This document shows positions 2,872 through 54,410 of a stretch of DNA of 64,000 nt, piece after piece. The stretch comes from an uncultured euryarchaeote. Its GTDB lineage: Archaea > Thermoplasmatota > Poseidoniia > Poseidoniales > Poseidoniaceae. The position numbers and the translations under genes are program-made. A model generated the notes under the pieces. The model was given only the letters and a program-made list of their open reading frames with translations. It was not told the origin of the DNA and searched no databases. Within the stretch, counting starts at the first letter, position 1, and each line of letters begins with the position of its first letter. Location of the stretch: positions 120,214 to 184,213 of the forward strand of contig CALBRH010000051.1 in assembly GCA_937899865.1 (NCBI GenBank), given 5' to 3'.

Positions 2872-2901
2872 AACATCCCGTCACTGTTTCCCTCTTTGAA
2901 T

Positions 2902-4161: not shown

Positions 4162-4253
4162 ATTATCGGCTCATAGTTCAAAGTCTTTGAATTCAACGGA
4201 TTTAGGATAAATCTTACATCGGTTTGATGAACTAATACATTTGCGCAGGTATA

Positions 4254-5033: not shown

Positions 5034-5128
5034 TTACTTACTTAACTCATTGATTTTGATTTAGACGGAATTTTAGATTACTTACAAAATAAACACTTTG
5101 TAGGATATCCGCAGGCAACCGTTATACA

Positions 5129-6709: not shown

Positions 6710-6713
6710 TAAC

Positions 6714-8132
6714 TTGAGAATAATTATTGGTGGTGCCGGCAGAGTTGGTACGGAACTAGCTAGAGCCCTAAGGGCGGAAGAAATGGACGTAGTCTTAGTT
6801 GATTCAGATTCAAGAGCAGTAAAAAATGCTCAAAACTTGGATGTTTTGGTAATCCATGGAGATTTGACTACAAGAGAAAAATTGAATGAAGCAGGAATTG
6901 GTGAAGCAGAGATATTTGTTGCAGCGACAAACTCTGATGAAAGAAATCTGCTTGCATGCGCCCTTGCAGAACATGCTCATTACCAATATGCAGGGTCAAA
7001 GGCCAAACCATTACTTTCTATTTCCCGAATAAGGAATATGAATTATTTAGAAGAGCAAAAACAGGGATATCTAACTAATTGGGCAAAGGTAAATCATGTA
7101 GTTAATCCATTAGATAGTGCAATCAAAAGATTACATACAGGTCTTAGATCATCCTCGATTGAGGAAGTTATTCCTTTTGGCCATGATTCATACATTATCG
7201 AATTCAATGTAACAAAAAGTGCTGAAGGCATTGTGTTTAATACATTAAAGGAAGCAAATGCTTCGATAGATGGAGAGTTACCACTTATTATTGGAGTAAA
7301 GAGAGTTGGAGAAAAAAGCGTTGTACCAGATGGAGATTTTGTTTTAATGCCAAATGACACTATTGCTGTAGCAACAAATGGCCTGTCAAGTTTTAACCGA
7401 ATTTTGAATATTTTTGGTCATGAAGCTACAGATTTCCCAATATCCCCTAAAGTTGCTATCATAGGTGCAAATAGAATTGGTCAAATGATTGCTGAAAATT
7501 GGTTGATGAATGGTGCAAAGGTTACTGTCATAGAAAGAGATTTACAACTGGCAAATGAATTCTCTGCAACCCATATTGGATCAAATCCCAACCTTGAGGT
7601 GATTCATGGAGACCATCTTGACCGAGACATCTTAACTGAAGTTGGAATACCAGAACATCATATTGCAATTGCAGCATTAGAATCTGACCATGATAGTATT
7701 GCTGCTGCTTTACTTGCAAGTGACATGGGAGTCAATCGTACAGGATTATTGCTTAATGATGCTGATTTGGTAAAAGTAACCCAAAGAATGGGTATAACAT
7801 TTGCAGTTGATAGAAAACGTGTTGCTGTTGATAATATCTTAGCTCATATACATACTAAAGCAGCAGGTGCATATGCAGTATTGTCAAATGTTCCTAATAT
7901 TGTTGGGATAAGTATGAGGGTTGATTCAGCGCATAAATTTTCCAACATGAGAATCTCGGATGCAGGATTTAGTGAGTGGATGAGAATAGCATTCATTCAA
8001 AGAAGAACTGTTGATGGTATTTGGGAGAATCTTAGACCTGCTCCTGAAAAATTACTGTTACCTGAAGATAACTTGATCATTTTTACCAGCCCAGATAAAG
8101 TTGCTGAACTTGAACGGAAATTCAAGGTGTAA
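6714..8132 (+). CDS. trkA: Trk potassium uptake system NAD-binding subunit TrkA (TTG start)
   Basis: A GGAGRVG Rossmann motif sits at the N-terminus and a second RCK/NAD domain (IIGANRIGQ) follows. It is immediately upstream of trkH. Confidence 0.8.
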   Translation: MRIIIGGAGRVGTELARALRAEEMDVVLVDSDSRAVKNAQNLDVLVIHGDLTTREKLNEAGIGEAEIFVAATNSDERNLLACALAEHAHYQYAGSKAKPLLSISRIRNMNYLEEQKQGYLTNWAKVNHVVNPLDSAIKRLHTGLRSSSIEEVIPFGHDSYIIEFNVTKSAEGIVFNTLKEANASIDGELPLIIGVKRVGEKSVVPDGDFVLMPNDTIAVATNGLSSFNRILNIFGHEATDFPISPKVAIIGANRIGQMIAENWLMNGAKVTVIERDLQLANEFSATHIGSNPNLEVIHGDHLDRDILTEVGIPEHHIAIAALESDHDSIAAALLASDMGVNRTGLLLNDADLVKVTQRMGITFAVDRKRVAVDNILAHIHTKAAGAYAVLSNVPNIVGISMRVDSAHKFSNMRISDAGFSEWMRIAFIQRRTVDGIWENLRPAPEKLLLPEDNLIIFTSPDKVAELERKFKV

Positions 8133-8134
8133 AC

Positions 8135-9751
8135 ATGCGTTTTGATGTACTTAGCCTGATTCTTGGATGGACCTTAATTGCGATTAGCATCCCATTGTTT
8201 ATCTGCAGTTTAATCACCATATGGTTAGATGATTTTGAAATGGCCATGAAGGCTTTTCTGATTCCAATTATTCTGTCACCAACAATAGGTAGTTTGATGC
8301 TTAAATTTGGTACTCGCAGTGACACTCCTGAAAGGCTTAGAGACCGTGAAGCGTTTGCTGCAGTCGCATTAATTTATCCAATTGTAGTATTCATTGGATT
8401 ATTTCCATATTGGCTTGGTGGAGTTTTTGTTGGACCTTTTACTGCAGATGCAAATTTAATCGATATTGCTCGTGGAGCAGTAAATTCTTGGTTTGAATCG
8501 ATGTCTGGATTTACTACCACTGGTGCTACTGTAATTTCACATAACATGAGTCCTAATTGTATACCTGGAGTCACAGTTGATTGTATTAATGCTCAACCGA
8601 GGGGAATCTTGCTGTGGCGTTCCATTACTCAATGGTTAGGTGGTATGGGTATCATTATGTTAGGTATGATGTTGTTATCAAGAGTTATGGGGGGTGGAAT
8701 GGCTCTGGCTAGGGCAGAGTTAACTGGTCCATCATTGTCAAGGCTAAGACCCAAATTGAAGGAAACAGCATTTGCATTATGGATTATCTACATTGGTTTG
8801 ACGGTTTTTGAAATGTTTCTATTACACTTTATTGGCCAAATGTCACTTTTTGACGCTGTAAATCACGGATTTACCACCATGGCAACTGGTGGTTTTTCAA
8901 CAAGAGATGCAAGTATTGGATATTATGATTCTTTGACAATTGAGGCAATAATCATTGTTTTCATGTTTGTTGGCGGCATTAATTTTACCTTAATCTGGTT
9001 CTTGATCGCTAGAGAATTTATGAAAGCATTTTCTGATGAAGAGTTCAAGACTTATCTTGTGTATATCTTCACTGCAGTTTTATTCATGATGGTAGCATTA
9101 ATTTCAACCAATATATCTCCAACTGATTCATTGAGACAGAGTTTGTTCCAAGCAATTTCAATTGGAACATCTACTGGTTACACAACACAAGATTATACAA
9201 CTTGGCCTGTTATAACTCAATTTGTACTGATGATTTTGATGATTGTTGGAGCTTGTGCTGGTTCCACTAGTGGTGGATTAAAATTAATGAGGATTATTCT
9301 TGCTTTCAAAGTAGCAATGAGAGAATTGGTTAGAATTGCCCAACCAAGAAAAATCAAGCAGATTAGAATGAATGGCGAAGTTGTAGAACCTCAACAAATT
9401 GACAAGATTGTCGGAATGTTATTTGTTTGGATTGGTCTTTTTGGAATTTCAAGTATATTGTTGGCAATTTTGATGTTAGATGAATCATTTGAAAGCATTA
9501 TAGGAATTACTGCATCATCTCTAGGTAATACTGGACCTGCTCTAGGTTCTTATGGTCCAAGTAGTACTTGGTCACCATTAAATTCTGGAGTTTTGATATT
9601 TACATCGATATTGATGTGGTTTGGTAGATTAGAATTATTGACAGTGGTTATCTTGCTCCATCCAAGGACTTGGCAGGATGAAAATAAAGAACATAGTGAT
9701 CGAAGGGCACTTGCACTGTTTAAGAGAATGATTCCTGGGCGGAAATTATAG
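8135..9751 (+). CDS. trkH: Trk potassium uptake membrane subunit TrkH
   Basis: It is a ~540-aa polytopic membrane protein with repeated selectivity-filter-like G-rich segments (TGAT, TGGFS, TGYT, GNTG). The start is 3 nt after the trkA stop. Confidence 0.8.
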   Translation: MRFDVLSLILGWTLIAISIPLFICSLITIWLDDFEMAMKAFLIPIILSPTIGSLMLKFGTRSDTPERLRDREAFAAVALIYPIVVFIGLFPYWLGGVFVGPFTADANLIDIARGAVNSWFESMSGFTTTGATVISHNMSPNCIPGVTVDCINAQPRGILLWRSITQWLGGMGIIMLGMMLLSRVMGGGMALARAELTGPSLSRLRPKLKETAFALWIIYIGLTVFEMFLLHFIGQMSLFDAVNHGFTTMATGGFSTRDASIGYYDSLTIEAIIIVFMFVGGINFTLIWFLIAREFMKAFSDEEFKTYLVYIFTAVLFMMVALISTNISPTDSLRQSLFQAISIGTSTGYTTQDYTTWPVITQFVLMILMIVGACAGSTSGGLKLMRIILAFKVAMRELVRIAQPRKIKQIRMNGEVVEPQQIDKIVGMLFVWIGLFGISSILLAILMLDESFESIIGITASSLGNTGPALGSYGPSSTWSPLNSGVLIFTSILMWFGRLELLTVVILLHPRTWQDENKEHSDRRALALFKRMIPGRKL

Positions 9752-19661: not shown

Positions 19662-22600
19662 ATGCGAGCATATAGCAAATCTGTTTTGATTGTGGTTCTT
19701 TTTTTGTTGTCATTAACTGTTCCTGTAATGTCTGTCAGTGCTCAGGGTGAATCTCCATCTCAAATAGAAGTTTTACATACTGCTATCAATCCAAATAATA
19801 ACAAAACTTACCACTTACTCAGTGAAGGATCTTGGTCAGATTCGGCAGAGGTTGCACGTGCATTAGATGGTTTTCTAACAACTGTTGATGATGCTGTAGA
19901 GAATCAATGGATTTTCGAAACCTTTGCTAATTACGATCAACAATCTAGGCATTTATGGATAGGTCTATCTGATTCAAATCAAGAAGGCGACTACCGTTGG
20001 CATGATGGCACACCTTTCCATTACAGGGACTGGGGACAAGATCAGCCTTCAGCGAGTGATGCGGAAAATTTTGTTCACATAGCTGGAACTAACATGGGCA
20101 ACATAATGCCTGGTACATGGAACGATTTAGATGATGACCCACAATACTTCCCAGTTTATGGTGTGGTTGAAGTTGGTGAAGCAGTAGACTATGCTCTACG
20201 ATTTGATGGTAATGATGACCAAATAATTATTGATGAAGACATTCCTTCTTTCACAGATAAAATTTCAATTACTGCTTCGATTAATTCACCAGATAACAGC
20301 GGAATACAATTTATAACTATGCTTGGTGATTATGGATGGGGACTTTACATTAACAATGGACTTGTTGCCTATGCAAGCGAGTATTCAATTTCTCGACATC
20401 CAACATCTAACACCAGTATAGTAGAAGATGTTTGGACCGAAATATCGGTAGAAATTGAAGAAGGGATAGGTGGACATTTCCTAATCGATGGAGAATTGGC
20501 TGGTGAAATTAGTGCTGAAGACGCTAAGATACCACAAGGCGACTTCGGTTCCAATGATTGTTTTCAATCTGGAGAAGATTGCGATGAATTGTACATAGGT
20601 AAGATGGGAGCAGGTTGTGACTGCAATTATTATCGGGGTATGATTGATTCTTTGTCAATAAATAATCAAGAACATTCACTAACTTGGGAATTCCTTGAAG
20701 GTGAAGGTCCAATCACAGAAGATGAAACTGGTAATTTCCAAGGTGAAATTGTAGGTGCTTCATGGGTAATGCCTGATGGGACAATTGTTGCCCAAGCAAT
20801 CCAGTTATTTTCTGATGAAGAAATATATGGTATAAGTGGCCAGAGAGGCGACCAATTACTATTTTTTGTTGAGATTGAGTCTTTGACCAAGAATCTATTT
20901 ATTGAGGCATTCTTTGAGTATAATGGTGAAGAATGGGGTGATTCTTCATTTGATGCATACTTTAGTCATGACGCCATACCGAATTCATGGGACTATGATG
21001 AAATTTATGACGATGTAACAGAATACATGTGGATGGATTGGTCGTGGCCTGATGAAGGTATTATGTGGATGGTAATTGTTCCAAGAACAGACATAGAAGA
21101 CCTTGCAATTTATACTTATATGGATATTGCAGATCCGCCCCCTTCGATAGATGAAATGACTGAATTAGTCAATGAAATACCTGTAACTGGTCAAAAAATA
21201 AACGCTGGTAGAGGTGCTCCTGATGAAGATAGAGTATTGTATTATTATGTCAATGTTACAGAAAATCTCTCAGCTTTAACTGTAAAAACATATGGTGGTA
21301 GCGGTAACATTGATTTGGCAATTTCCTCTCAAACTGTCCCTGACCCATTCAATTCTTTTTGGGGCTGGAATGAGCCTTGGTTTGAGGAATTTGACGACGT
21401 AGGTATTTTTGGTGAATTTGTTAATATTGATACTAAATCAGATTGGTCAATTGGTCCTGGAAATGAACACCAAGTAAATCTCTATGATGTTAAACCTGGA
21501 ATATACTACATAACCGCATACACCTATGGTAAGGCTAATGATTTTACTATAGTAGCATCTATGTCATTTGAACCTCAAAATATTGAGCCAGAAGATGCAA
21601 TTGAGTTAACTCCAGGCATACCATATGGCCCTCTAAGTGGCTATAATGGATTAAGTCAGTATTTCAAAATCAATGTTCCTGAAGCAACTGAAAGATTGGT
21701 TGTCGACCTTAATTCTGGTTTTGGTGAGGCATCTCTTTACATGAAATTATCAGACTCGCCAACAACTAATGACTACATGCACAAAAGCAACAGTCCTGGT
21801 TCTGGTGATAAAATAGGGTTTAATGATCCAACTCCAGGAATGTGGTATATCTTACTTGATACAGAAATGGTGTTTGGTGATGTTACAATAACTGCTTCCT
21901 TTGAAGATAGATATGTTTGGGAATATGATGGAAACCCAATTCAGTTATTCAATGGGGAAGAAATTTCAGGTATTGAGGCTCCAACTGGTGAGTCACTAAA
22001 TTTCTTTGTGGAATTAGAAAAACCAGGTGAATATTTAATGATACAAACCTATGGAGGTAATGGTGATTTAGTAATGACTGCTACTGGAAATTCTTTAGTA
22101 TTCGGTTTCGAGGATTTCTTTGATTTCTTTGAAGATGACAAGTCTTTTGACGAAGAAGGCAGACAAAGACCTGGTAACAATTTTGATAGTGAAGAAGTAA
22201 CACTTACTTCTGATGGATTCGGAACAGAACAAATGATTTACCTAGATCTACCTGCTAACGGAAGATTTGACATTTCTGTTGATGCACTAGAAGAAATCAG
22301 TGAAGTTACAATTGTGGCAAGTTGGGTTTACTCTGACTTCATAGAACCAATTGAAGAACCTCAAGATCCAATCGTTAGCCAAAACTGTCGAGATATTGCC
22401 GAAAACGAGATGACTAGTAAAGATAAAGATAGCAATGGCGTACTAAGTAAAACTGAATTTGAGTCAATCATATTAAATGACAATAAATTAGATTTTACAA
22501 AATCTGATATCAATGTTGATGGTGAAATTGAATTCTCTGAATTATTGCAGATTTCATGTTCATGTAATAATGAACTAGAATTGATATTTACTCAGTTATC

Positions 22601-23297
22601 ACCGGAAGATGATGAAGTTAGCATAGAGAAATTATCATCACAAGTATATGAAAATAAGTACAACTTCTTTGACATAGACAGTAATTCAAATTTAAGAATA
22701 TCACGTTCTGAAATCGACATCCTAATACTACTTTGTGACACAACCTTTGATGCATTTGATGGTGATGGTGATGGAGTTCCTGATGATGAAGATGCATTTC
22801 CAAATGATCCTGATGAAACCAAAGACACTGATGGAGATGGTGTTGGCGACAATGCCGACTTAGCCCCTTCAGTGTCTAATGATTTGATTTATTCAGCTGG
22901 AGCAATTCTAGCTATTGGATTGCTTGCCATGTTGGTTCTTGTATCAAGAAGTTCTAGAGGAGGTGATGTGAATTCAGCGTGGGAATCAGATAAGCAGTAC
23001 AATCTGGCTGAACAAATGCTTAACATGCAAGAGTCACCAATGGTTATGGAACAACAAATTGAGACACCACAAGACTCGTATGAAGTAGATAATGTCATGG
23101 ATAAAAGAGAAATTGTTGATAATAAAACAACCAATAGTGACAATCTTTTCGAACAATTACTTTCCCAACCTGAGTCGCCTCCAAATCAGTTACTTGGAAT
23201 GATTGATAGTAATGGTATTGAAGTGATTGAATTCCCAATGGGTTCAGGAAATATGTGGCAAAGAAGCAATCCTAATCAATCTTGGATCAAAAAATAA
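19662..23297 (+). CDS. Giant secreted/cell-surface protein with C-type lectin, PPC-like, EF-hand-like and D-rich Ca2+-binding repeat domains and a C-terminal TM helix
   Basis: The N-terminal signal peptide is followed by a C-type-lectin signature (WIGLSDSNQEGDYRWHDG..W). Several ~100-aa beta-rich modules follow (YYYVNVTEN..TYGGSGNIDL). EF-hand-like DxDxNG loops, a DGDGDGVPDDEDAFPNDPDETKDTDGDGVGDNAD repeat, a TM helix and a ~110-aa tail complete the protein. Confidence 0.7.
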   Translation: MRAYSKSVLIVVLFLLSLTVPVMSVSAQGESPSQIEVLHTAINPNNNKTYHLLSEGSWSDSAEVARALDGFLTTVDDAVENQWIFETFANYDQQSRHLWIGLSDSNQEGDYRWHDGTPFHYRDWGQDQPSASDAENFVHIAGTNMGNIMPGTWNDLDDDPQYFPVYGVVEVGEAVDYALRFDGNDDQIIIDEDIPSFTDKISITASINSPDNSGIQFITMLGDYGWGLYINNGLVAYASEYSISRHPTSNTSIVEDVWTEISVEIEEGIGGHFLIDGELAGEISAEDAKIPQGDFGSNDCFQSGEDCDELYIGKMGAGCDCNYYRGMIDSLSINNQEHSLTWEFLEGEGPITEDETGNFQGEIVGASWVMPDGTIVAQAIQLFSDEEIYGISGQRGDQLLFFVEIESLTKNLFIEAFFEYNGEEWGDSSFDAYFSHDAIPNSWDYDEIYDDVTEYMWMDWSWPDEGIMWMVIVPRTDIEDLAIYTYMDIADPPPSIDEMTELVNEIPVTGQKINAGRGAPDEDRVLYYYVNVTENLSALTVKTYGGSGNIDLAISSQTVPDPFNSFWGWNEPWFEEFDDVGIFGEFVNIDTKSDWSIGPGNEHQVNLYDVKPGIYYITAYTYGKANDFTIVASMSFEPQNIEPEDAIELTPGIPYGPLSGYNGLSQYFKINVPEATERLVVDLNSGFGEASLYMKLSDSPTTNDYMHKSNSPGSGDKIGFNDPTPGMWYILLDTEMVFGDVTITASFEDRYVWEYDGNPIQLFNGEEISGIEAPTGESLNFFVELEKPGEYLMIQTYGGNGDLVMTATGNSLVFGFEDFFDFFEDDKSFDEEGRQRPGNNFDSEEVTLTSDGFGTEQMIYLDLPANGRFDISVDALEEISEVTIVASWVYSDFIEPIEEPQDPIVSQNCRDIAENEMTSKDKDSNGVLSKTEFESIILNDNKLDFTKSDINVDGEIEFSELLQISCSCNNELELIFTQLSPEDDEVSIEKLSSQVYENKYNFFDIDSNSNLRISRSEIDILILLCDTTFDAFDGDGDGVPDDEDAFPNDPDETKDTDGDGVGDNADLAPSVSNDLIYSAGAILAIGLLAMLVLVSRSSRGGDVNSAWESDKQYNLAEQMLNMQESPMVMEQQIETPQDSYEVDNVMDKREIVDNKTTNSDNLFEQLLSQPESPPNQLLGMIDSNGIEVIEFPMGSGNMWQRSNPNQSWIKK

Positions 23298-30860: not shown

Positions 30861-31547
30861 ATGGTTAGTTTAGATGATGCTGTCTTAGCAAGAATGGAAA
30901 AGGGCGGCAAAAGGTATGAAATCTTAGTTGACCCCGATTTAGTCGACGCTTTCAAAACCGACGCATCTTCTGTCAAAATTGATGAATTCTTTGCTATGGA
31001 TGAAGTATTTCATGATGCTAGAGGTGGAGAGAGACCTACTGAAGAAGCAATACAGAACACTTTTGGAACTCAGGACATCTTAGAAATCGCCAAAATTATT
31101 TTTGAAAAGGGAAGTATTCAGTTAACGACCAATCAACGTAAAGCAATGGTAGAAAGAATGCGGCAAAAAATTGTTCATCACATTCATAGCCAAGCCGTAG
31201 ACCCTAAAACGAAGAGCCCCCATCCTAAAACTAGAATTGAATTAGCTTTAGAAGAGTCACGCTATTCTGTTGATCCATTCAAAAATCTAGAGCAGCAAAT
31301 AAAAGAGGCAACTGATAAACTAAAACCACTTATCCCACTATCCTTTGAGACAATAAAATTAGCATTTAAAGTCCCTGGTTCTGATTGTGGTAGCGCAATG
31401 CGTATCTTACGCCCATTTCAAATCAAAGAGGGATGGCTTGAAGATGGTTCATGGGCAAGTGTAGTTGAGATTCCTGCTGGTATGAAGGGCGAATTAATAG
31501 GCCAAATAATGAAAATTTCATCCCAGACAGAAGTAAAAGAAATGTAA
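30861..31547 (+). CDS. sdo1: Ribosome maturation protein SBDS/Sdo1
   Basis: The N-terminal FYSH-domain sequence KRYEILVDPD matches SBDS. It sits in the canonical position after psmA in the archaeal exosome superoperon. Confidence 0.75.
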   Translation: MVSLDDAVLARMEKGGKRYEILVDPDLVDAFKTDASSVKIDEFFAMDEVFHDARGGERPTEEAIQNTFGTQDILEIAKIIFEKGSIQLTTNQRKAMVERMRQKIVHHIHSQAVDPKTKSPHPKTRIELALEESRYSVDPFKNLEQQIKEATDKLKPLIPLSFETIKLAFKVPGSDCGSAMRILRPFQIKEGWLEDGSWASVVEIPAGMKGELIGQIMKISSQTEVKEM

Positions 31548-43954: not shown

Positions 43955-44416
43955 ATGCTAGCCAAAGTTACTGGCTTACATACTTCTGATGGCGGAGTTC
44001 CAAAGACTCCTGTAGAATTGTTGGAGGTTACGTTTAGCGGCTGTGTTGGTGACAAGCAGAATGATTTGAAACATCATGGTGGTATAGACAAAGCAGTTTG
44101 TATCTTACAGCAGGAAATTATTGAGCAATTAAACCAAGAGGGGCATCCAATTACTGCTGGAAGCACAGGTGAAAATATTCTAATTCATGGTCTTGCAATA
44201 GGCGATATTAAACCTGGGTCAGTAATTAAGTTCCCAGATGTTCTACTTATGATTACCCAAGATGCCCCACCTTGTAAAACAATCAAGGAATCATTTCTTG
44301 ATGGATACTTTAATGCTATTTCTCATATTAGATCACCAAATAATACTAGATGGTATGCTAAGGTAATTGAAGAGGGTTCAGTTAGATTGAATGATTCTAT
44401 TGAAGTGATCAACTAA
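43955..44416 (+). CDS. MOSC domain protein (YiiM-like)
   Basis: It is a ~150-aa beta-barrel protein with the conserved GD...HGG..KA and PC motifs of MOSC domains. Confidence 0.5.
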   Translation: MLAKVTGLHTSDGGVPKTPVELLEVTFSGCVGDKQNDLKHHGGIDKAVCILQQEIIEQLNQEGHPITAGSTGENILIHGLAIGDIKPGSVIKFPDVLLMITQDAPPCKTIKESFLDGYFNAISHIRSPNNTRWYAKVIEEGSVRLNDSIEVIN

Positions 44417-46229
44417 TTCTCTTTAATTGGTAATCTGTTAATTCTCGTAGAGCCAGTAATGCTGGACTGTCTGGTAGGCGATCTAAGCATGCATGGGCTC
44501 TTTTGTGATACATTTCCGCTTTTTCTCTAGCATATTCTACCGAACCAATAGTGTTTAGTGCGGCTAAACCAAGATCTATTTCTGCTTGGGTTGCAGAATC
44601 CCCTTTACCAAGTACAGCCTTGAGATCATTTAGGGCTGGTGAATCTTTTTGTGATAGTGCGTGAATTACCATTAGTGTCCTCTTTCCTTGGGCTAAATCA
44701 GACCCTGCTGGCTTACCAAGAGTGTCTGAATCAGATAGTACATCAATTAAATCATCCATCAATTGGAAACAAAGCCCAACCGCAAGACCCCAATCTGCCA
44801 TACATTGTATGGTCTCATCATCTGCTCCAGACATACGAGAACCTACTTCTGCACATGTGAGAAACATGACTGCTGTTTTGCCTTCAATCATTTCGAAATA
44901 ATCATCCTCAGATACTGCAATTCTATCTTCAAATTCAATATCTAATTGCTGTCCTTCACTTACTCGCCTAACCATCCAAGCTAAGCGATTTACCATTGCA
45001 CCTACATCTTTGTGTTCAAGACCCTTAGCTCCAACTAATCTCTCAAAGGCAATCGCTAACATAGCATCTCCTGCATTGATTGCTGTGGGCAAACCATATT
45101 CTATGTGAACTGCATTAAGACCTCTTCTAGTATCATCATCATCCATAATGTCATCATGAACTAAAGTAAAATTATGGACGATTTCAATTGCTGCTCCAAC
45201 ATCCAATAAACCTGAGTGAGAATCTCCGACTGCTTTTCCAACCAACCATGGCAATGTTGCCCTAAGTCTTTTGCCTCCTCCTTCAATCAAATGCATCATA
45301 GCACTCGATAAGCGAGAATGTTTTGAAGCACAAAGACTGTCAGAAATCCTCTTTTCAACAAGTGGCTTTACTTCCATTATCGACGTGCTTAATCCAGCGC
45401 CAGTTGCATAAGTTAGCATATGCGAAACATCACCCATATCATGAATCATACCGTCTCTTAATCCAAGCAACTTTTGCTCATCACCAATACTATTCCACCA
45501 TTCATCTGACATCACTTGAGCCGCTATACATCTAAACCAGGGGGCAATTTCGCCATCAATATCTATTTCACCAGTTAATATTGATTCCAACTCTTGCTGA
45601 CTAACCCACTTAACATCTGAAACTTCATTTTTGTTGATTGAAAGGTTGACATCTGCTTGAATTACCAAAATGTGGTCTATCTCTCGCTCAATCCAATCCT
45701 CATTCATCCTTGCTGAATACATCATTTTAGTAACAAAGTGAAAATCTTCTAACTTTAATTCACTAGGATCTATACCAAGTTCTTGGTGAAGTTTTCTTAT
45801 CGCTGCACGTTTTACTCCCAATGAATCTTTTAATTCTGATTCTTCTGTAGAATTTAATGGATGTGAGCAGCATGAGTTAGCCCAAACACCTGGAAATGTA
45901 ACTTTATCATCGGCTCTTTTTTGCAACAATAGTCTGTTTTCACTATCAAATAATAACACACTAAAAGCTCTATGAAGTAAACCTGCTTCAAAATGAGCAG
46001 AAACCTTTGAGGCTTGGCCGATTTCATTATCGTCTTCATCGACAAGTATTACCGCTTCTGACATGAGTGAAATTTGCTCTTCATCTGCTGATTTATTAAT
46101 CAACATCTGCATCATATCATCATCTATTGTAACCGACGGAACATCATCTATTTGGTATCCAGCCAAGTCATCACCATACCTTGCACTTGAACTCAATAAA
46201 TGAATAGTTCCCCTATTAAGGAACTTCAA
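44409..46229 (-). CDS. Fusion protein: isopentenyl-diphosphate isomerase type 1 (Nudix) + geranylgeranyl-diphosphate synthase (trans-prenyltransferase)
   Basis: The N-terminal half, HRAFSVLLFDSENRLLLQKRADDKVTFPGVWANSCCSHP, is IDI-1. The C-terminal half has the first and second Asp-rich motifs LVHDDIMDDDDTRRG and FQLMDDLID...GKPAGSDLAQGKRT. It is a single uninterrupted 606-aa ORF. Confidence 0.7.
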   Translation of the reverse strand: MKFLNRGTIHLLSSSARYGDDLAGYQIDDVPSVTIDDDMMQMLINKSADEEQISLMSEAVILVDEDDNEIGQASKVSAHFEAGLLHRAFSVLLFDSENRLLLQKRADDKVTFPGVWANSCCSHPLNSTEESELKDSLGVKRAAIRKLHQELGIDPSELKLEDFHFVTKMMYSARMNEDWIEREIDHILVIQADVNLSINKNEVSDVKWVSQQELESILTGEIDIDGEIAPWFRCIAAQVMSDEWWNSIGDEQKLLGLRDGMIHDMGDVSHMLTYATGAGLSTSIMEVKPLVEKRISDSLCASKHSRLSSAMMHLIEGGGKRLRATLPWLVGKAVGDSHSGLLDVGAAIEIVHNFTLVHDDIMDDDDTRRGLNAVHIEYGLPTAINAGDAMLAIAFERLVGAKGLEHKDVGAMVNRLAWMVRRVSEGQQLDIEFEDRIAVSEDDYFEMIEGKTAVMFLTCAEVGSRMSGADDETIQCMADWGLAVGLCFQLMDDLIDVLSDSDTLGKPAGSDLAQGKRTLMVIHALSQKDSPALNDLKAVLGKGDSATQAEIDLGLAALNTIGSVEYAREKAEMYHKRAHACLDRLPDSPALLALRELTDYQLKRIS

Positions 46230-47041
46230 TTACTGAATATTTGAGTGCCGATTGTTGGTACACCAGTACATGCATCAAGCAAACGCTGAGAATTTTCACC
46301 ATTGATTATGAATACATCGATGCCCATTGCTGCAACTTCTGCACCCCTAGTAGCCTTCAAACCAATCCCACCAGTTATATCAATATCTGAGTGATGGACA
46401 CCAGAAAACTCTACATTTGGTGACCACTTATCAATTAAATCATCATCAGTAGCTACTTTAGGTGGCCTTCTAAGAATTCCATCTACTCCTTTAACAGCAA
46501 AAATCAACCTAGACACATTTGGAACATCTTGGCATATTCTTACTACTAAATCATCACCAGATAATATTCCAAATCCACCAACATCACAATCTACTACATC
46601 ACCAAAAGTGATTACAACTTCTTTGCTTGAATCAAATCGATCAACTATGTTTCCACTGAAATTACTTCCTGTATTCCTAACCCACTTGTGTGGGGGGTGA
46701 GAAATTGTCGAAATTCCCTTTTCAGCAAATGATTTTTTAATGATTGAATTTAAAGTAAGCATTTCTTTACGTACTATACTAACAGCCTGTATTTGTGATT
46801 CACAATCCTCTTGTGGAGAGAAATCATGATTTGCAATTAAGCCTTCATTTAGTCGCCAATGTTTAGCTCTTAGATGGCCGAATGAACCTGCACCATGAAC
46901 AACAATTATTCTCAACCCTTGTTGTAAACAATTTTCCACAACACCTACTAAATTATCAATTATATTGATCTCAGGCGTACACATTTGAGACTTGTTCGTG
47001 ATTAGTCCACCTCCGAACTTAATCACTACGACCTCAGCCAT
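46226..47041 (-). CDS. ipk: Isopentenyl phosphate kinase
   Basis: It carries the amino-acid-kinase fold IPK motifs VIKFGGGLI, VVHGAGSFGH, ILSGDDLV and DIDITGG. Its stop overlaps the IDI::GGPPS start (ATGA). Confidence 0.75.
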   Translation of the reverse strand: MAEVVVIKFGGGLITNKSQMCTPEINIIDNLVGVVENCLQQGLRIIVVHGAGSFGHLRAKHWRLNEGLIANHDFSPQEDCESQIQAVSIVRKEMLTLNSIIKKSFAEKGISTISHPPHKWVRNTGSNFSGNIVDRFDSSKEVVITFGDVVDCDVGGFGILSGDDLVVRICQDVPNVSRLIFAVKGVDGILRRPPKVATDDDLIDKWSPNVEFSGVHHSDIDITGGIGLKATRGAEVAAMGIDVFIINGENSQRLLDACTGVPTIGTQIFSN

Positions 47042-48212: not shown

Positions 48213-48279
48213 CGATTAACTAAACAATGTAGGTTAGTTTAACCGCTTCAATCAAATGCTTCTTACTCTTGGGACTGTT

Positions 48280-49452
48280 ATGGTTGAAGTAGGCATCATC
48301 GGTGCTGGCCAAACAAAATATGGCAATCATCAACTTGGAATGAAGGGAATGTGGGCTGAAGCCGCAAGAAATGCCTTCGACAGTGTCGACAAAGATTTTC
48401 ACCCTAGTCAAATCGATGAGGCTTTTATTGGCAGCGTCGCATTTGGTGGTGGCCAATTAGGAAATACAGCGGCATTATTAACAGAGCACTCGGGGATGCA
48501 AGGGAAACCTGTTCGACGAGTAGAAAATGCCTGTGCATCTTCAGGTTTTGCTTTACGAGATGCATGGATGGCAATAAAGAGTGGTCAAGCAGATATCGTA
48601 GTAGCAGGCGGTATTGAGAAAATGAATGATTTAACACCAGAGAGAAAGCGATTTTGGCTTGGAGTATCTGGAGATACTGAATGGGAAAGATTGGCTGGAC
48701 TTACTTTTCCAGGCACTTATGCCTTGATGGCACGTAGATATTTTCATGAATTTGATTCAACTCATGACGACTTAGTGAACATTAGTGTGAAAAATCATTT
48801 TCATGGACTTGAAAATCAATTTGCTCATATACGTAAAGATGTTAGTTTTGATAAGGCCAAAAATGGATTTATGGTTGCAGACCCATTGACATTGTATGAT
48901 TGTTGTCCAACATCTGATGGTGCTTCATGTGTTATTCTTGCTGCAGATCACGTGGTAAAACAATTCACTGATGATCCAATTTGGATTAATTCATCTGCTG
49001 CGGCCTCTGATTATTTAGCACTCCATGATAGACCTTCAATCACTCAATTGGTTGCAACTCAAATGGCTGCAAAACGAGCATACTCTATGGCTGGAATAAA
49101 AGCAAACGACATCGATTTGGCTGAAGTTCATGATTGCTTTACCATTGCTGAATTATTAGCTACTGAAGATCTAGGATTTGCTAACCGTGGAGAAGGTGGA
49201 TTGTTTGCTAGAGAAGATAGAGGAAGAAGAAATGAAGGCAATACATGCATCAATCCAAGTGGTGGGCTAAAATCCAAAGGCCATCCTTTAGGTGCAACCG
49301 GAACCGGTCAAACCGTAGAAATTTTCAAGCAACTACGTGGTGAAGTTGAGTCAGTTAGGCAAGTTAGGGATGCTGAAACTGCTCTAAGCCATAATGTCGG
49401 AGGTTCTGGTGCAACATGTGCAGTTCATATTTATGGGAGGGATAAGAGATGA
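48280..49452 (+). CDS. Archaeal-type acetyl-CoA acetyltransferase / thiolase
   Basis: The thiolase fold begins VGIIGAGQTKYG, with the active-site Cys in NACASSG and C-terminal GH..GATG and GG.G blocks. The ORF track begins at 48256. Confidence 0.75.
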   Translation: MVEVGIIGAGQTKYGNHQLGMKGMWAEAARNAFDSVDKDFHPSQIDEAFIGSVAFGGGQLGNTAALLTEHSGMQGKPVRRVENACASSGFALRDAWMAIKSGQADIVVAGGIEKMNDLTPERKRFWLGVSGDTEWERLAGLTFPGTYALMARRYFHEFDSTHDDLVNISVKNHFHGLENQFAHIRKDVSFDKAKNGFMVADPLTLYDCCPTSDGASCVILAADHVVKQFTDDPIWINSSAAASDYLALHDRPSITQLVATQMAAKRAYSMAGIKANDIDLAEVHDCFTIAELLATEDLGFANRGEGGLFAREDRGRRNEGNTCINPSGGLKSKGHPLGATGTGQTVEIFKQLRGEVESVRQVRDAETALSHNVGGSGATCAVHIYGRDKR

Positions 49453-50267
49453 GTGATGTTGTAAATTGGCAGGGTTATTTGATTAAAAGCCAAGCTAACA
49501 ATCACTTAATTTGCTCTCCTTGGATTTTGGATGATTCGTGTGTTTTTGGCCACGATAGCGATTATACAACTTTAGCAACATCCTTGCTTAGATACCTTTC
49601 TATAGATTTTAAAGTTACAACACTAAGCAATGTTGATGAAAAAATTTCTCAAGAAATTTTGCTTGCATCAACTGATTTTGTTACAGGAGATGAAGGTTTT
49701 ACAATCACTTGTAATGAAGATGCATCACTTTACATACACTTGAATAACTACAATTCAATTGAATTACCAACTGAACATATGAGTATTATCGATTCAGATG
49801 TTTACCATAAAATAACCAATGCATGGCAAGAAGAAACCAATGTCAAGAATATCTCTCAAGGTGCTTATGTATCCTCACAACAATATAATCAAAATCTTAA
49901 TTCAAGATTATCTCTTGTAGCTCAAGATAATGGACAATTAATCTGGCCACAACGACTAATGGATGCTCAAGGAAATGATATTCAAGACTCCAAAGTACGC
50001 ATGAAGCCTTTTGGAAAAGTAATCACTTGGACACAATTAAGCGCTGCAGGAGCCCCATCAGAATTTGCTATTAGAGCCCCCATTTTAGGAGGGATATGTA
50101 CTGTAATGATAGAGACTTTAGATGGTCCAAATGGTGTATTTTTACTTGTTGATGACCAAAATTTAACTCCAGAAATTGGTGATTCAGTGGAACTGGTTGT
50201 TAGAAGGCTTTACGCACAGGAAGGTGTAATCAGATATGGGGCAAAAGCCATTATTTCGGACCTTTGA
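49449..50267 (+). CDS. DUF35/OB-fold-like protein (thiolase/HMG-CoA synthase scaffold-type) with a ~150-aa N-terminal extension
   Basis: The C-terminal ~110 aa (GKVITWTQL.....EFAIRAPILGGICTVMIETLDGPNGVFLLVDD....IGDSVELV) resemble the DUF35 OB-fold. The start overlaps the thiolase stop by 4 nt. The canonical Cys4 ribbon is not evident. Confidence 0.4.
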   Translation: MSDVVNWQGYLIKSQANNHLICSPWILDDSCVFGHDSDYTTLATSLLRYLSIDFKVTTLSNVDEKISQEILLASTDFVTGDEGFTITCNEDASLYIHLNNYNSIELPTEHMSIIDSDVYHKITNAWQEETNVKNISQGAYVSSQQYNQNLNSRLSLVAQDNGQLIWPQRLMDAQGNDIQDSKVRMKPFGKVITWTQLSAAGAPSEFAIRAPILGGICTVMIETLDGPNGVFLLVDDQNLTPEIGDSVELVVRRLYAQEGVIRYGAKAIISDL

Positions 50268-50309
50268 AATTGCAAAGCATTGATAGAAAAAAGATGATTA
50301 GGGTTAATT

Positions 50310-51326
50310 ATGGCGGGATTTGGTGGAATTAGAAAAGGTCGGCGCGAAGCCGCTGATAACTTATCTTTTACCGAAGGAGGAGATTGTCCAAGATGTGGAG
50401 GAGATGCTGAAAAGTCTTCGATGGCTGGATATCTTAGATGTGTAGTATGCTCACACGAATGGCCAGATCCTGATTATGTAGAGGAAAGCAAAGTAGAAGA
50501 AATACCAAGTTACCATAGAGATGCTGAACTTATTGAACAATTCAAAAAAGACGTTTCTTCAGGTAGTTTAGCAAATGTACTAGGCGTGAACAAGAATCTA
50601 TCTGAACAACAGGAAGCATCGCTTGCTCGTTTAGAAGACAAGTGGATGAGTGGAATGCAGGGCCGATTTAATACTGCCACTGAAGAGCGAAAACCATTGA
50701 TGATTATGTTTGATGAAGAAGATAACATTGTATCTACTGAAGTAGCTGCACTAACTGTTGTTTCAAATGGTTTTGATGGTGGTGAAGAAATACGGTTAGA
50801 ATATCCAGGAAAAGGAACCGAGTTTTACGCATTCAATATCAATGATGGCATGGGATGGAGAAGAGGAGCTAATGCAGAAGAGACTGCTAGGTCAATAGCA
50901 AATGTAATCAATAACAAATCTAATCTTGTTTTTGCCAATGTAGATGGTGCTAGAATTTCTTTTGAATTAAGGAGCGAAGATTTGAGGCCAGAGTCATTGG
51001 TGCTTTTTGTCGACGACCCTGGTGGAACTGATATTATTGCTGAAAAGAATGGCATTATATTAGATGCTAGGAATGCTTCCGATTTCGATGATTATCGAAG
51101 GGTCGTGGAAATGGTTCTTGAAGACGGCATAATTTCACCAAGCGAAGATCAATTATTATGGTCGCTTCGTCAAGAATTAGGAATAGATGATGCATACCAC
51201 ATTCAAATGGTTTTGAGTATGTATGGAGATCAAACTCTCAAGGAATGTACTAGTTGTTCTGCAATGGCTGAATTATATGTCGAATATGGAACTTGGTATT
51301 GTCATTCATGTGAAGAGTGGTGCTAA
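50310..51326 (+). CDS. Hypothetical protein with N- and C-terminal zinc ribbons
   Basis: The N-terminal ribbon is CPRCGG...CVVCSHEW and the C-terminal one is CTSCS......YCHSCEEWC. It lies upstream of the actin-like gene. Confidence 0.45.
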   Translation: MAGFGGIRKGRREAADNLSFTEGGDCPRCGGDAEKSSMAGYLRCVVCSHEWPDPDYVEESKVEEIPSYHRDAELIEQFKKDVSSGSLANVLGVNKNLSEQQEASLARLEDKWMSGMQGRFNTATEERKPLMIMFDEEDNIVSTEVAALTVVSNGFDGGEEIRLEYPGKGTEFYAFNINDGMGWRRGANAEETARSIANVINNKSNLVFANVDGARISFELRSEDLRPESLVLFVDDPGGTDIIAEKNGIILDARNASDFDDYRRVVEMVLEDGIISPSEDQLLWSLRQELGIDDAYHIQMVLSMYGDQTLKECTSCSAMAELYVEYGTWYCHSCEEWC

Positions 51327-51451
51327 TTAAAAATACATTATTCAGCACATCTTTCTATAGAATTTATTCTGATTTAATTTTCTACTTCTCTTTTGAACAT
51401 CATAGGGATTCTTCATAAGGTATGTCGCAATGGCTTAGTTAGGCGAGTCAT

Positions 51452-52477
51452 ATGGCTGGAGATGTATTGTATATTGGAATTGATTTGGGAACTTTTCGCT
51501 CTGTAATGGTTTCCTCAGATAGTCATGAAGAAGAAGAGTTAACTGTTATTGGAACACCAAAAGACCCTATTGCAAAAAATTTCTTGAAAAGAGATGTTCT
51601 ATTTGGTGAAGAAGCATTGAAGAATAGATTGGCGCTCAATTTGTTTAGACCTCTAGAGCATGGTGTAATCAAAGATACATCTGAAGATAGAGATTTCATC
51701 GCTCACTTCATCACTCATCTAATTTCACTTTCAGACCCTGAAGAATATGACCGAGTTGTGGCTGTTATTGGAGCTCCGGCTGAAGCAAGTTATGTTGACA
51801 AGACTGCTATTTTTGACGCCGCTGCTGGTACAGTTAATGCAGCAATGATTATTTCTGAGCCTTTTGCTGTTGCTTACGCTCTTGATATGATTGAACACAC
51901 CCTAGTAATTGATATTGGTGCTGGAACTACTGACCTATGTCGTGTCTACGGTACTATACCAAGCCCTGATGACCAAATGCATACTGAATATGCTGGTGAT
52001 TATATCGATAATAAGATTATTGAAGAAGTTCAGTCTAAATATAGCGGTGCACAAATTACCAAAGACATGGCAAGAAGATGGAAGGAGCAGAACTCATTTG
52101 TTGGAACTTCAACCCCAGATTCTCCAGTAATGGTTGATTTCTCAATCGAAGGTAAGGCAATGACTCTTGACATTACTGATTGTATCCAAAATGCATGTGA
52201 ATCTATTGTTGATCCAATTGTTGAGAATGTAAAAACTCTAATCGCTGGTTCAAACCCTGAATATCATGAACAATTTAGAAGAAATATGATTCTTGCTGGC
52301 GGAGGTTCTGGAATTGATGGCCTTGGTGCTATGATAGAGAGAAGACTCAGTGATCTTGGCGACGTCAATGTTCATGTCGTTGACGACCCTGTAAGACTTG
52401 GTGCTATGGGCGGTCTAAGACTCGCTATGGAAGTACCAGAAGAGATGTGGAAGAACCTAACTCTTGCTTCCCGCTGA
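51452..52477 (+). CDS. MreB-like actin-family ATPase
   Basis: Phosphate-1 is IGIDLGT and phosphate-2 is VIDIGAGTTDL. The adenosine motif is ILAGGGSGIDGL, and FRPLEHGVIKD matches the MreB RPMKDGVIAD block. Its 341-aa length is MreB-like. Confidence 0.75.
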   Translation: MAGDVLYIGIDLGTFRSVMVSSDSHEEEELTVIGTPKDPIAKNFLKRDVLFGEEALKNRLALNLFRPLEHGVIKDTSEDRDFIAHFITHLISLSDPEEYDRVVAVIGAPAEASYVDKTAIFDAAAGTVNAAMIISEPFAVAYALDMIEHTLVIDIGAGTTDLCRVYGTIPSPDDQMHTEYAGDYIDNKIIEEVQSKYSGAQITKDMARRWKEQNSFVGTSTPDSPVMVDFSIEGKAMTLDITDCIQNACESIVDPIVENVKTLIAGSNPEYHEQFRRNMILAGGGSGIDGLGAMIERRLSDLGDVNVHVVDDPVRLGAMGGLRLAMEVPEEMWKNLTLASR

Positions 52478-52479
52478 TT

Positions 52480-53115
52480 TCATTCTTGTTCTGTTAAGCC
52501 GTACTTAGCGGCTAAGTTTGGATCGATTAGTGGTGCCTGGCAATGAGGACATCTGTCACTTGCACTGAGCATTGAAGGCCTAATTGCAAGAACTGCCATA
52601 CATTTTGGACATGCTGCAAGCATCTCACCTTGTTCTAGTTGGAAATCTATTCCATCAGATTCAAAATTAAAGTAACCTGACTTGTAAATTGGATTAAAGT
52701 GATACATAAATCTCCTAAATGAACCAATAGACGCCCAGCCAGTCAAGAATAAAAATAACAATCCACCTACATTACCTGATATGACAAAAATGATTGAATC
52801 AAGAGCATTTAGAGCAAAAAACAGACCCGCAATAAAAATCAAAATAGCAGCAGGCCAATATGCCCAAGCAACCTTTGAGCGATATGAGTTCCATGTCACA
52901 TAACAAATAATTGCGACAAAACAGAGTACTAACTTGGATAATGTTGGAGATATTGCTGAAGCAATTGCCCAAAATAAATACATTACAATAAGTCCGTCAA
53001 TAAAGACAATAAATGTAGTACCGCGATGAATTCTATCAAATACGCTATTTCTTGCAACTAAACTGTTAGGTTTCATACCAGCAACTACAAGCTGGTCGCC
53101 TCGGTTTGGCTGCAT
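52480..53115 (-). CDS. Membrane protein (4-5 TM) with a C-terminal cytoplasmic zinc ribbon
   Basis: Hydrophobic helices are followed by CPKCM..........CPHCQ. Confidence 0.45.
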   Translation of the reverse strand: MQPNRGDQLVVAGMKPNSLVARNSVFDRIHRGTTFIVFIDGLIVMYLFWAIASAISPTLSKLVLCFVAIICYVTWNSYRSKVAWAYWPAAILIFIAGLFFALNALDSIIFVISGNVGGLLFLFLTGWASIGSFRRFMYHFNPIYKSGYFNFESDGIDFQLEQGEMLAACPKCMAVLAIRPSMLSASDRCPHCQAPLIDPNLAAKYGLTEQE

Positions 53116-53204: not shown

Positions 53205-54410
53205 TTGTTCATGGCGATGCGAGACACGGATGTTGAAATTCGTGGCGATAGCCTTGCAGATAAGAAAATCTTGCTTGGCGTTAGTGGAGGAATTGCAGCA
53301 GTAGACACTGTTCGCCTGGCCAGAGAGTTACGTAGACATGGTGCAAATGTCATTGTAATGATGACACACTCAGCTCAGAAAATAATTTCTCCATTAGCAG
53401 TTGAATGGGCTACACAAACAGAGGTCATTACCAATTGGGAAAGTGATTTGTCTGCTTTAGAAACAGTTGATGGAATTTTAATTGCTCCAGCAACTAGGGA
53501 CTTGTTAGCGAGTTATTTGCATGGCTTGCAACATGGCCCAATTTTGATGGCATTGAGTGCTGCGAGAACTCGCAAATGCCCGGTCATGATGATTCCAAGT
53601 ATGCATGCTGATTTAGCAGATGATCCCGTTACCAATGACCTTGTTGAAGAAGTAGAGAAACTTGGAATCAAAGTACATTGGGGAGAAGAACAAGAAGGAA
53701 AAAGAAAAACTCCACCTCATGATGAAATAGTTGCTCGATTTGCTAATTACATCAACATGAATGTTGCTGAAAGGAAATCCATTGTAATCACTTTAGGTTC
53801 AACACGTTCACCAATAGATGACATAAGATATGTGCAAAATACCAGTAGTGGAAAAACTGGGTTTGAAATTGCTGATCATTTATTTCGGCATGGACATGAT
53901 GTTACATGTGTTGCTGGAATAACCTCATTTCCACAACCAAAGTGGTTACCATTAGTTATCAAAACAGATACACCTAATGAAATGTTACGCGAACTAAAAG
54001 CACTTAGTAATGATAAAATTGATGCTTGGATTCATAGTGCTGCTGTACTAGATTATGTGGTAGATTCTCCGGCTGAAGGGAAATTAGCCAGCCAGCAAGG
54101 TCCTTTGCAAATAACATTAGTTGAAAGTGAAAAACACATTTTAGAACTAAAAGATAAATGCCAAAATGCTGTAAGAATTGGTTTCAAATTAGAAACAGGA
54201 ATCAAGCAAAAAGAACTGGTAAGAAGAGCAGTTGCTCAATTGGAGTATGCTGAAATGACTGCAGTAATAGCAAACAGATTGGAAGACCTCAAAGACAAAA
54301 GTAAGCCACGAGCATATCTTGTCGATAAGAGTGGGGCAGATTTTACATTAAACAATATGCAAGATGTCTGTATTGCTATTACAACCATAGTTGAAAGAGG
54401 TAATCAGTGA
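53205..54410 (+). CDS. coaBC: Bifunctional phosphopantothenoylcysteine decarboxylase / phosphopantothenate-cysteine ligase
   Basis: The N-terminal flavoprotein domain is KKILLGVSGGIAA and the C-terminal domain is DFP/CoaB-like. Confidence 0.7.
   Translation: MFMAMRDTDVEIRGDSLADKKILLGVSGGIAAVDTVRLARELRRHGANVIVMMTHSAQKIISPLAVEWATQTEVITNWESDLSALETVDGILIAPATRDLLASYLHGLQHGPILMALSAARTRKCPVMMIPSMHADLADDPVTNDLVEEVEKLGIKVHWGEEQEGKRKTPPHDEIVARFANYINMNVAERKSIVITLGSTRSPIDDIRYVQNTSSGKTGFEIADHLFRHGHDVTCVAGITSFPQPKWLPLVIKTDTPNEMLRELKALSNDKIDAWIHSAAVLDYVVDSPAEGKLASQQGPLQITLVESEKHILELKDKCQNAVRIGFKLETGIKQKELVRRAVAQLEYAEMTAVIANRLEDLKDKSKPRAYLVDKSGADFTLNNMQDVCIAITTIVERGNQ

Follow-up and report, generated by a model that had tools for sequence, protein, structure and literature searches.

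A predicted MamK-family actin-like ATPase of Poseidoniales archaea and its candidate lineage-specific partner

To which family does an archaeal actin labelled MreB in public annotation belong, and do the genes beside it encode its partners? The question is raised by a 64,000-nucleotide stretch of contig CALBRH010000051.1 (positions 120,214 to 184,213; called the window below) from an uncultured member of the Poseidoniales. Three open reading frames (ORFs) lie there in a row, encoding a 338-residue protein with zinc ribbons, a 341-residue actin-fold protein and a 211-residue membrane protein (Table 1). The initial annotation had taken the actin-fold protein for a homologue of bacterial MreB, and had suggested that the three genes form a cytoskeletal module of regulator, filament and membrane tether.

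The coordinates and strands assigned at that stage to all three ORFs proved exact, and so did the archaeal host, whose named relatives are Poseidoniales (Marine Group II, MGII). These are among the most abundant archaea of the surface ocean; they are uncultured, and their cell biology is barely known. Thirteen public marine contigs encode an actin of identical sequence and share the gene order of the window here, and all three genes are under purifying selection (nonsynonymous measure pN 0.04-0.31 versus synonymous measure pS 0.6-0.8). Taking the evidence as a whole, we consider it probable that the 341-residue protein is a 'clade A' actin of the MamK family, that the 338-residue protein is its single credible partner candidate and that the 211-residue protein is a bystander.

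Family of the actin-fold protein

Public annotation pipelines name the 341-residue protein MreB because its top match in Pfam is MreB_Mbl (PF06723; 93 bits, cut-off 27), a broad model that captures MamK-like proteins too. Among the NCBIfam models, the best-scoring family by far was MamK (NF040964), with 367.9 bits over model positions 1-331 of 335. The MreB models gave 81 and 90.9 bits against cut-offs of 365.75 (TIGR00904) and 293 (NF010539), which were thus missed by a factor of 3-4.5, and the BeeR model (NF053558) gave 224 bits against a cut-off of 530. Matches to the salactin and volactin models of Pfam and NCBIfam were weak (56-65 bits and 27 bits; NCBIfam salactin 64.7 against a cut-off of 400), as was a match to a PHROG 'partition protein' family (E-value 2e-9), while the ParM model scored at noise level (E 0.0075, 15.5 bits).

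Among PDB sequences, MamK matched over residues 4-336 at E 1.7e-75 (entries 5LJW, 5JYG and 5LJV at about 1e-75), followed by BeeR (7e-47) and the best MreB (8e-14). When an AlphaFold2 (AF2) model of the protein (mean predicted local distance difference test, pLDDT, 74; predicted template-modelling score, pTM, 0.75) was submitted to Foldseek, MamK 5LJW, 5LJV and 5JYG came out on top (E 2e-27, TM-score 0.75-0.81), then BeeR (1e-24) and then MreBs (about 1e-15). The earlier claim of a 'block for block' match to MreB did not survive these comparisons, since the motifs concerned are general to all actin-fold proteins and MamK models and structures score 4-5 times higher. That the protein is neither crenactin, ParM nor Hsp70 did hold, and it is a polymerising-type, bacterial-style actin homologue.

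An exhaustive search of 1.84 billion cluster representatives returned 158 with E 1e-30 or better, and a scan of GTDB species genomes yielded 80 loci in three groups. The first comprises the Poseidoniales orthologues (83-94% identity to the window actin) and the second a further paralogue, 'clade B', in Poseidoniaceae genomes (46-48%). The third (40-47%) is made up of proteins from Planctomycetota, Acidobacteriota, Desulfobacterota, Nitrospirota, Gammaproteobacteria, Omnitrophota, Methanoperedens and ANME-2, and true magnetotactic Magnetococcales are also among the homologues in this range. Clade-A actin was found in both Poseidoniaceae and Thalassarchaeaceae, and the two clades sometimes occur together in the same metagenome-assembled genomes (MAGs), for example of UBA255 (loci L010 and L030).

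In a neighbour-joining tree (a distance method; Kimura distances, 330 columns, 300 bootstraps), clades A and B each received 100% support, their sister relationship 68% and the MamK-like group excluding BeeR 77%. The window protein fell within this MamK-like group and MreB formed a distant outgroup, so that the tree, like the structural ranking, spoke against the MreB label. The mean identity to bacterial MamK-like proteins is 43% for the window actin and 40.5%, over the same set, for the MamK of AMB-1; by sequence, the claim of the former to membership of the family is therefore no weaker than that of the founding MamK. Clade-A actin is vertically inherited and order-wide in the Poseidoniales, and the MamK-like family is widespread in non-magnetotactic bacteria and present in some other archaea.

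The window contains no clade-B paralogue. One clade-B actin is found on contig NZEQ01000025.1 (L031), labelled Verrucomicrobiales bacterium ARS100; it groups tightly with the copies from Poseidonia MAGs and, as there, has an S8 subtilase-like gene upstream. This is probably a Poseidoniales contig that was binned into the wrong genome.

The actin ORF contains the motifs GIDLGT, SEPF, VIDIGAGTTD and LAGGGS, and all five nucleotide-binding motifs defined for MamK (PMC10653835) are present, among them phosphate 1, connect 1 (xEPx), phosphate 2 (DxGxG) and adenosine (GG). The conserved residues are D11/G13/T14, E136 (MamK E143), D154 (MamK D161), G156/G158/T159 and G283/G284/S286, and the equivalents of MamK D17, G19, T20, E143 and D161 were invariant in 81 aligned homologues. 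E143 and D161 are reportedly the residues mutated in ATPase-dead MamK.

In every comparison, conservation among the 13 genes of the block was highest for the actin (80-94% identity versus 21-88% for the others), with a pN of 0.04 and a nonsynonymous-to-synonymous ratio (dN/dS) of 0.03-0.04. Such strong constraint would be typical of polymer-forming cytoskeletal proteins.

Residue E273 aligns with MamK A278, the position changed in the 'non-polymerising A278D' crystal form of MamK. We dropped the idea that this glutamate is a sign of non-polymerisation, an acidic residue being normal for the family there: Asp or Glu is found in 12/13 clade-A proteins, in T. maritima MreB and in 29/50 of the remaining MamK-like proteins. 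Ala or Ser occupies the position in the three magnetosome MamKs of the set and in only 6/50 other MamK-like proteins, and may be a loose sequence marker of magnetosome MamKs.

As the initial annotation had remarked, the MreB partner genes mreC, mreD and rodZ are not among the neighbours of the actin (thiolase, the 272-, 338- and 211-residue genes, CoaBC and others); the Poseidoniales are not known to have murein. The Pfam scan, which covered 23 ORFs of the window, turned up no mam-type gene, and there was none among the called genes of related loci. Judged by its sequence, the 341-residue protein is a predicted actin-like ATPase of the MamK family and not an MreB. Nor is it a magnetosome MamK, its host being a non-magnetotactic planktonic archaeon and its locus devoid of mam genes.

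Genes beside the actin

From N to C terminus, the 338-residue protein consists of a basic arm with an L37Ae-like Cys4 ribbon, a helical linker, an alpha/beta domain (about residues 140-255), an ENT/TerB-like three-helix unit (about 259-305) and a second Cys4 ribbon. The presence of ribbons at both ends, claimed earlier, was confirmed by an alignment of 39 homologues, in which seven cysteines (C26, C29, C47, C313, C316, C331 and C334) are invariant and the eighth, C44, is conserved in at least 90%. The N-terminal ribbon resembles those of ribosomal L37Ae and of IS1595/TFIIB. No member of the family passed a Pfam threshold; there are 278 clusters, and every cluster with a named source is from Poseidoniales or Thermoplasmatota. 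With a pN of 0.08, the protein is as constrained as thiolase. We also considered whether the flanking proteins derive from viruses or defence systems and rejected this: there were no PHROGs matches and no meaningful PADLOC matches, and the 338-residue family was on no viral contig.

The gene for this protein lies directly upstream of clade-A actin in 15/15 GTDB orthologue loci, in four MGIIb loci for which DNA was available (two of them with a confirmed identity of 52-61%) and on one further MGIIb contig of which the gene calls alone were readable. The same was seen in all metagenome loci with the actin present and room to see. When loci were anchored on divergent homologues of the 338-residue protein, the pair was found in the three that reach far enough, the fourth contig ending just past the start of the downstream ORF. 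The pair is kept where the downstream flank is rearranged, and it is kept in MGIIb despite a changed upstream flank. There, the place upstream of the 338-residue gene is taken by a different thiolase paralogue (L087:3738-4865, L089:3686-4822), which is 21-23% identical to the window thiolase and differs from it in its Pfam C-terminal domain. Also missing in MGIIb is the 272-residue gene, which in the window overlaps the thiolase and has no family match; a role for its product as a DUF35-type thiolase scaffold was unsupported by Pfam, NCBIfam and PDB sequences. Neither BLAST nor profile hidden Markov models detected homologues of the 338-residue protein beside other MamK-like genes.

By hydropathy, the 211-residue protein has two broad hydrophobic stretches (residues 32-77 and 81-128), probably corresponding to four transmembrane helices. 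Its C-terminal ribbon (C169/C172/C189/C192) is invariant in 7 diverse homologues, and the distribution of lysine and arginine places both termini, and hence the ribbon, in the cytoplasm. The earlier description of a membrane protein with a cytoplasmic zinc ribbon was therefore accurate. Its gene converges on that of the actin, the two stop codons being 2 bp apart. A diverged homologue (29-31% identity, E 1e-15 to 1e-25) holds the same place in MGIIb, so that the three-gene arrangement is probably ancestral; the same homologues rule out that the 211-residue gene was never a conserved neighbour of the actin.

The persistence of this junction was assessed in 80 metagenome loci anchored on the 211-residue gene, 74 of them readable for CoaBC and 69 for the actin. 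The divergently transcribed CoaBC gene was adjacent in all 74, displaced or absent in none, and this across 42-94% protein identity. The actin was adjacent in 37 loci; in 5 it was displaced by 0.7-2.4 kb, and 27 lacked it. Breaks were of at least two types. In the Poseidonia lineage, a translocation has left the actin with unrelated genes after it; in other cases, unrelated genes were inserted, among them one for a sirtuin-type deacetylase. The 211-residue gene also evolves fast (pN 0.18-0.31). We judge it to be a bystander that belongs with CoaBC, outside the actin module.

Of the three-gene module, then, only one half stood up across the Poseidoniales: every locus examined had the 338-residue gene just upstream of the actin, whereas the junction with the 211-residue gene, intact in 37/69 readable loci, is often broken. 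With the actin displaced or absent in 32/69 loci and CoaBC adjacent in 74/74, gene order lends no support to a membrane tether.

Both spacers flanking the 338-residue gene hold a conserved promoter-like box. In an alignment of nine loci, the box AAAGCATTGATAGAAA ends 22 nt before the ATG of this gene and is recognisable in both Poseidoniales families. A TTCA[AT]A box also occurs upstream of many unrelated genes of the window. In the form TTCA[AT]A[GA]R, it is seen about 20-45 nt before many starts (50280-50291 and 51410-51421, and also upstream of 1501-2871(-), 2902-4161(-) and 30861-31547(+)), and it looks like a generic promoter (TATA-like) element of this genome. An operon of the 338-residue gene with either the actin or the thiolase was rejected, both spacers holding a box that is generic for the genome. 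The spacer before the actin also contains the palindrome TCTATAGA, which was not found in the MGIIb loci aligned. The 9-mer TTCTATAGA has 4 sites in the window versus 0.74 expected, the other three being inside ORFs.

MamK-like genes of other lineages keep different company. Clade-B actins have a gene for an S8 subtilase-like surface protein upstream in 13/13 loci and one for a 421-residue coiled-coil protein downstream in 12/13 (loci L021-L032 and L053; in L028, for example, the actin at 5941-6999 has the neighbours 2639-5881 and 7093-8358). Among 52 bacterial loci, 18 have the MamK-like gene directly preceded by a gene for an Amidase_3 protein (N-acetylmuramoyl-L-alanine amidase), often with an overlap of a few bases (L033, L035, L036, L041, L047, L054, L055, L059-L061, L063-L065, L067, L072, L074, L076 and L077; e.g. 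L055:4683-6005). The host lineages of these loci are not known as magnetotactic, and the amidase linkage is a hint that this bacterial subfamily may act at the cell wall or in division. In Planctomycetota loci, a coiled-coil protein is encoded upstream.

Outside the Poseidoniales, the nearest representatives are proteins of 500-1230 residues (P0244, P0246-P0255, P0257-P0259). These start with a coiled coil, followed by low-complexity sequence over a long stretch, and end in a MamK-like domain that is 43-49% identical to the window actin. We rejected these as fusion evidence for the pair, because their coiled-coil and low-complexity N-termini, unlike the 338-residue protein, carry no ribbons. 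The pattern across the family is that of a conserved filament protein with lineage-specific neighbours, and this is the main reason why the 338-residue protein was kept as a candidate adaptor.

Weighing the explanations

In the explanation that we favour, the actin would bind ATP and polymerise into multi-stranded cytoplasmic filaments, as MamK and BeeR do, and these filaments would position or scaffold some cell component, which would not be a magnetosome because mam genes are absent here. The 338-residue protein would act as an adaptor or regulator, with its ribbons possibly serving to attach nucleic acid or a further protein to the filament. Gene order is the evidence for this candidate role, and the protein is the single credible candidate for it because no other neighbour of clade-A actin has never been separated from it.

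Several observations weigh against this explanation. The MamK score of the actin falls below the NCBIfam cut-off of 400, subdomain IB (residues 25-74) has low confidence in the AF2 model (pLDDT about 30), and polymerisation is presumed by homology with MamK and BeeR. Magnetosome genes, which would have pointed to a cargo of the filament, are absent. As to the partner, the folds of the 338-residue protein are generic and matched no known actin-binding domain. The two genes do not form an obligate operon, since each has its own generic promoter-like box. Finally, the whole block (IDI/GGPS, IPK, ZnR-122, Tpt1, thiolase, on to CoaBC) is syntenic across both Poseidoniales families; conserved synteny of an entire housekeeping block is weak evidence of function, and the adjacency of the two genes may reflect simple inertia of gene order.

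These last points are also what makes it a distinct, if tentative, possibility that the actin works alone or with partners encoded elsewhere, the 338-residue protein being an unrelated ribbon protein that binds nucleic acid or protein and is kept in place by gene order. The syntenic housekeeping block, the separate promoter-like boxes, the likeness of the N-terminal ribbon to those of L37Ae and IS1595/TFIIB and the lack of a known actin-binding fold would all fit. However, the junction between the actin and the 338-residue gene is the sole one around the actin that survives changes on both outer flanks, and the 338-residue family, strongly constrained, is limited to the lineage with clade-A actin. 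At the other extreme, the 338-residue protein could represent a new class of actin-filament adaptor, forming with clade-A actin a Poseidoniales-specific two-component cytomotive system that tethers cargo, in parallel with a system of clade-B actin and its coiled-coil neighbour. Through its L37Ae-like ribbon, the adaptor could then hold nucleic acid, ribosomes or some protein complex as cargo. We regard this more elaborate proposal as unlikely.

Two further explanations would give the locus a more familiar function. An MreB-type cell-shape actin, in a three-gene module with the 338-residue protein as regulator and the 211-residue protein as membrane tether, would agree with the top Pfam match (93 bits) and the public name, with the gene order found in both Poseidoniales families, with the 2 bp between the stop codons and with the cytoplasmic ribbon of the membrane protein. 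It is highly improbable nonetheless: MamK models and structures widely outscore those of MreB, whose cut-offs are missed, the putative tether evolves fast, and events of at least two kinds have separated it from the actin while CoaBC has stayed in place in all 74 loci. Both the MreB assignment and the genomic linkage of the tether are already largely refuted. We likewise attach very little probability to a DNA segregation system of the ParMRC kind, with the actin as motor, the 338-residue protein as DNA-binding adaptor and the spacer palindrome as its site. Salactin, the nearest archaeal relative of MamK, is reportedly linked to DNA partitioning, the ribbons are of nucleic-acid-binding types, the actin weakly matches the PHROG 'partition protein' family, and TCTATAGA is conserved before the actin in MGIIa and mildly over-represented in the window. 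Yet there is a single copy of the palindrome and no iteron array, it is absent in MGIIb, and its other copies in the window are intragenic; the locus is chromosomal and housekeeping, not plasmid-borne, and the ParM models scored at noise level.

Other features of the window and comparison with known actins

Table 1. Positions of the features discussed, in window coordinates
Feature	Position	Strand	Basis
Poseidoniales-specific protein, 338 residues, candidate actin partner	50310..51326	+	Profile searches, gene order
Predicted MamK-like actin-fold ATPase, 341 residues; order-wide 'clade A' actin of Poseidoniales	51452..52477	+	Profiles, PDB, Foldseek, tree
Membrane protein, 211 residues, C-terminal Cys4 ribbon; judged outside the actin system	52480..53115	-	Alignment, hydropathy, neighbour counts
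Spacer, 125 bp, from 338-residue gene to actin	51327..51451	+	Alignment of 10 loci, motif counts
MGIIa-specific 8-bp palindrome TCTATAGA	51354-51361	+	Spacer before actin, 10-locus alignment
Promoter-like box GGGATTCTTCATAAGGT, conserved	51404-51420	+	10-locus alignment
Shine-Dalgarno-like GGCGAG	about 51442-51447	+	Spacer before actin
Spacer, 42 bp, upstream of 338-residue gene	50268..50309	+	Alignment of 9 loci
Thiolase	48256-50267 (span together with the overlapping 272-residue gene)
272-residue gene	49449-50267
CoaBC	53205-54410
Lhr-type helicase, 1761 residues	14320-19605	+
Protein of 1211 residues, C-type lectin and PPC domains	19662-23297	+
NUDIX (IDI-like) and polyprenyl synthase fusion, 606 residues	44409-46229	-
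AA_kinase-family (isopentenyl phosphate kinase-like) gene	46226-47041	-

Three further genes or gene groups of the window may be mentioned. The NUDIX and polyprenyl synthase fusion gene lies beside the isopentenyl phosphate kinase-like gene, and this isoprenoid cluster (44409-47041) is kept with the block in both Poseidoniales families. The 1211-residue protein is a probable surface protein. The helicase gene precedes it, and the C-terminal part of its product has a weak, sub-threshold AlkZ-like match.

In the full-text literature we found no paper on an actin or MreB homologue in Poseidoniales or MGII, though the review literature on archaeal actins may hold an earlier mention. Neither 'MreB' nor 'actin homolog' occurs in the text of PMC6461757, the main paper on MGII genomes. 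Relatives of MamK beyond magnetotactic bacteria were already known, as exemplified by BeeR (PMC11929497) and by the relation of MamK to salactin (PMC10746226). What is new here is a member of a known actin family and one candidate lineage-specific partner.

Irrespective of the role of this partner, the one universally conserved actin of the Poseidoniales would be a MamK-type filament protein that public annotation mislabels as MreB. Some lineages of the order have two paralogues, each with fixed neighbours, and these are concrete proteins to express and image. More broadly, MamK-like actins may be a general positioning cytoskeleton well beyond the magnetotactic bacteria, paired in bacteria with peptidoglycan amidases or coiled-coil proteins.

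Among the known actins, MreB shares with the window protein the actin fold, a similar length and the phosphate and adenosine motifs. It differs in sequence (only about 21-27% identity, scores below the cut-offs) and in its distant outgroup position in the tree, and the window locus lacks MreC, MreD and RodZ. Salactin and volactin (PF25229, PF25216) are archaeal actin homologues as well, and the nearest family of salactin is MamK (PMC10746226). They belong to another lineage, the window protein scores far lower against them than against MamK, and it lacks their long charged N-terminal tail.

BeeR, the three-stranded tubular actin of Verrucomicrobiota (PDB 8R2N), is also a relative of MamK from a non-magnetotactic host, its cellular function is likewise unknown, and it is the second-best match in both sequence and structure. 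However, it has a disordered N-terminal extension of 30-50 residues (PMC11929497) and BeeR-specific cross-strand residues. The first aligned residues are 7 of the window protein and 38 of BeeR; the extension is thus absent from the window protein, which branches with the MamK-like proteins and not with BeeR.

The founding MamK positions magnetosomes in magnetotactic bacteria. The window protein, by contrast, comes from a non-magnetotactic archaeon, has no mam genes nearby and scores just under the NCBIfam cut-off; it has a glutamate at the position of A278, where the three magnetosome MamKs of the set have Ala or Ser, and its neighbour is a zinc-ribbon protein instead of a partner of the MamJ, MamY or Mca type. 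Despite these differences, the two proteins are collinear over their full length (residues 4-336; 36-38% identity, E about 1e-75), belong to the same length class and share the five nucleotide-binding motifs, and MamK is the best structural match.

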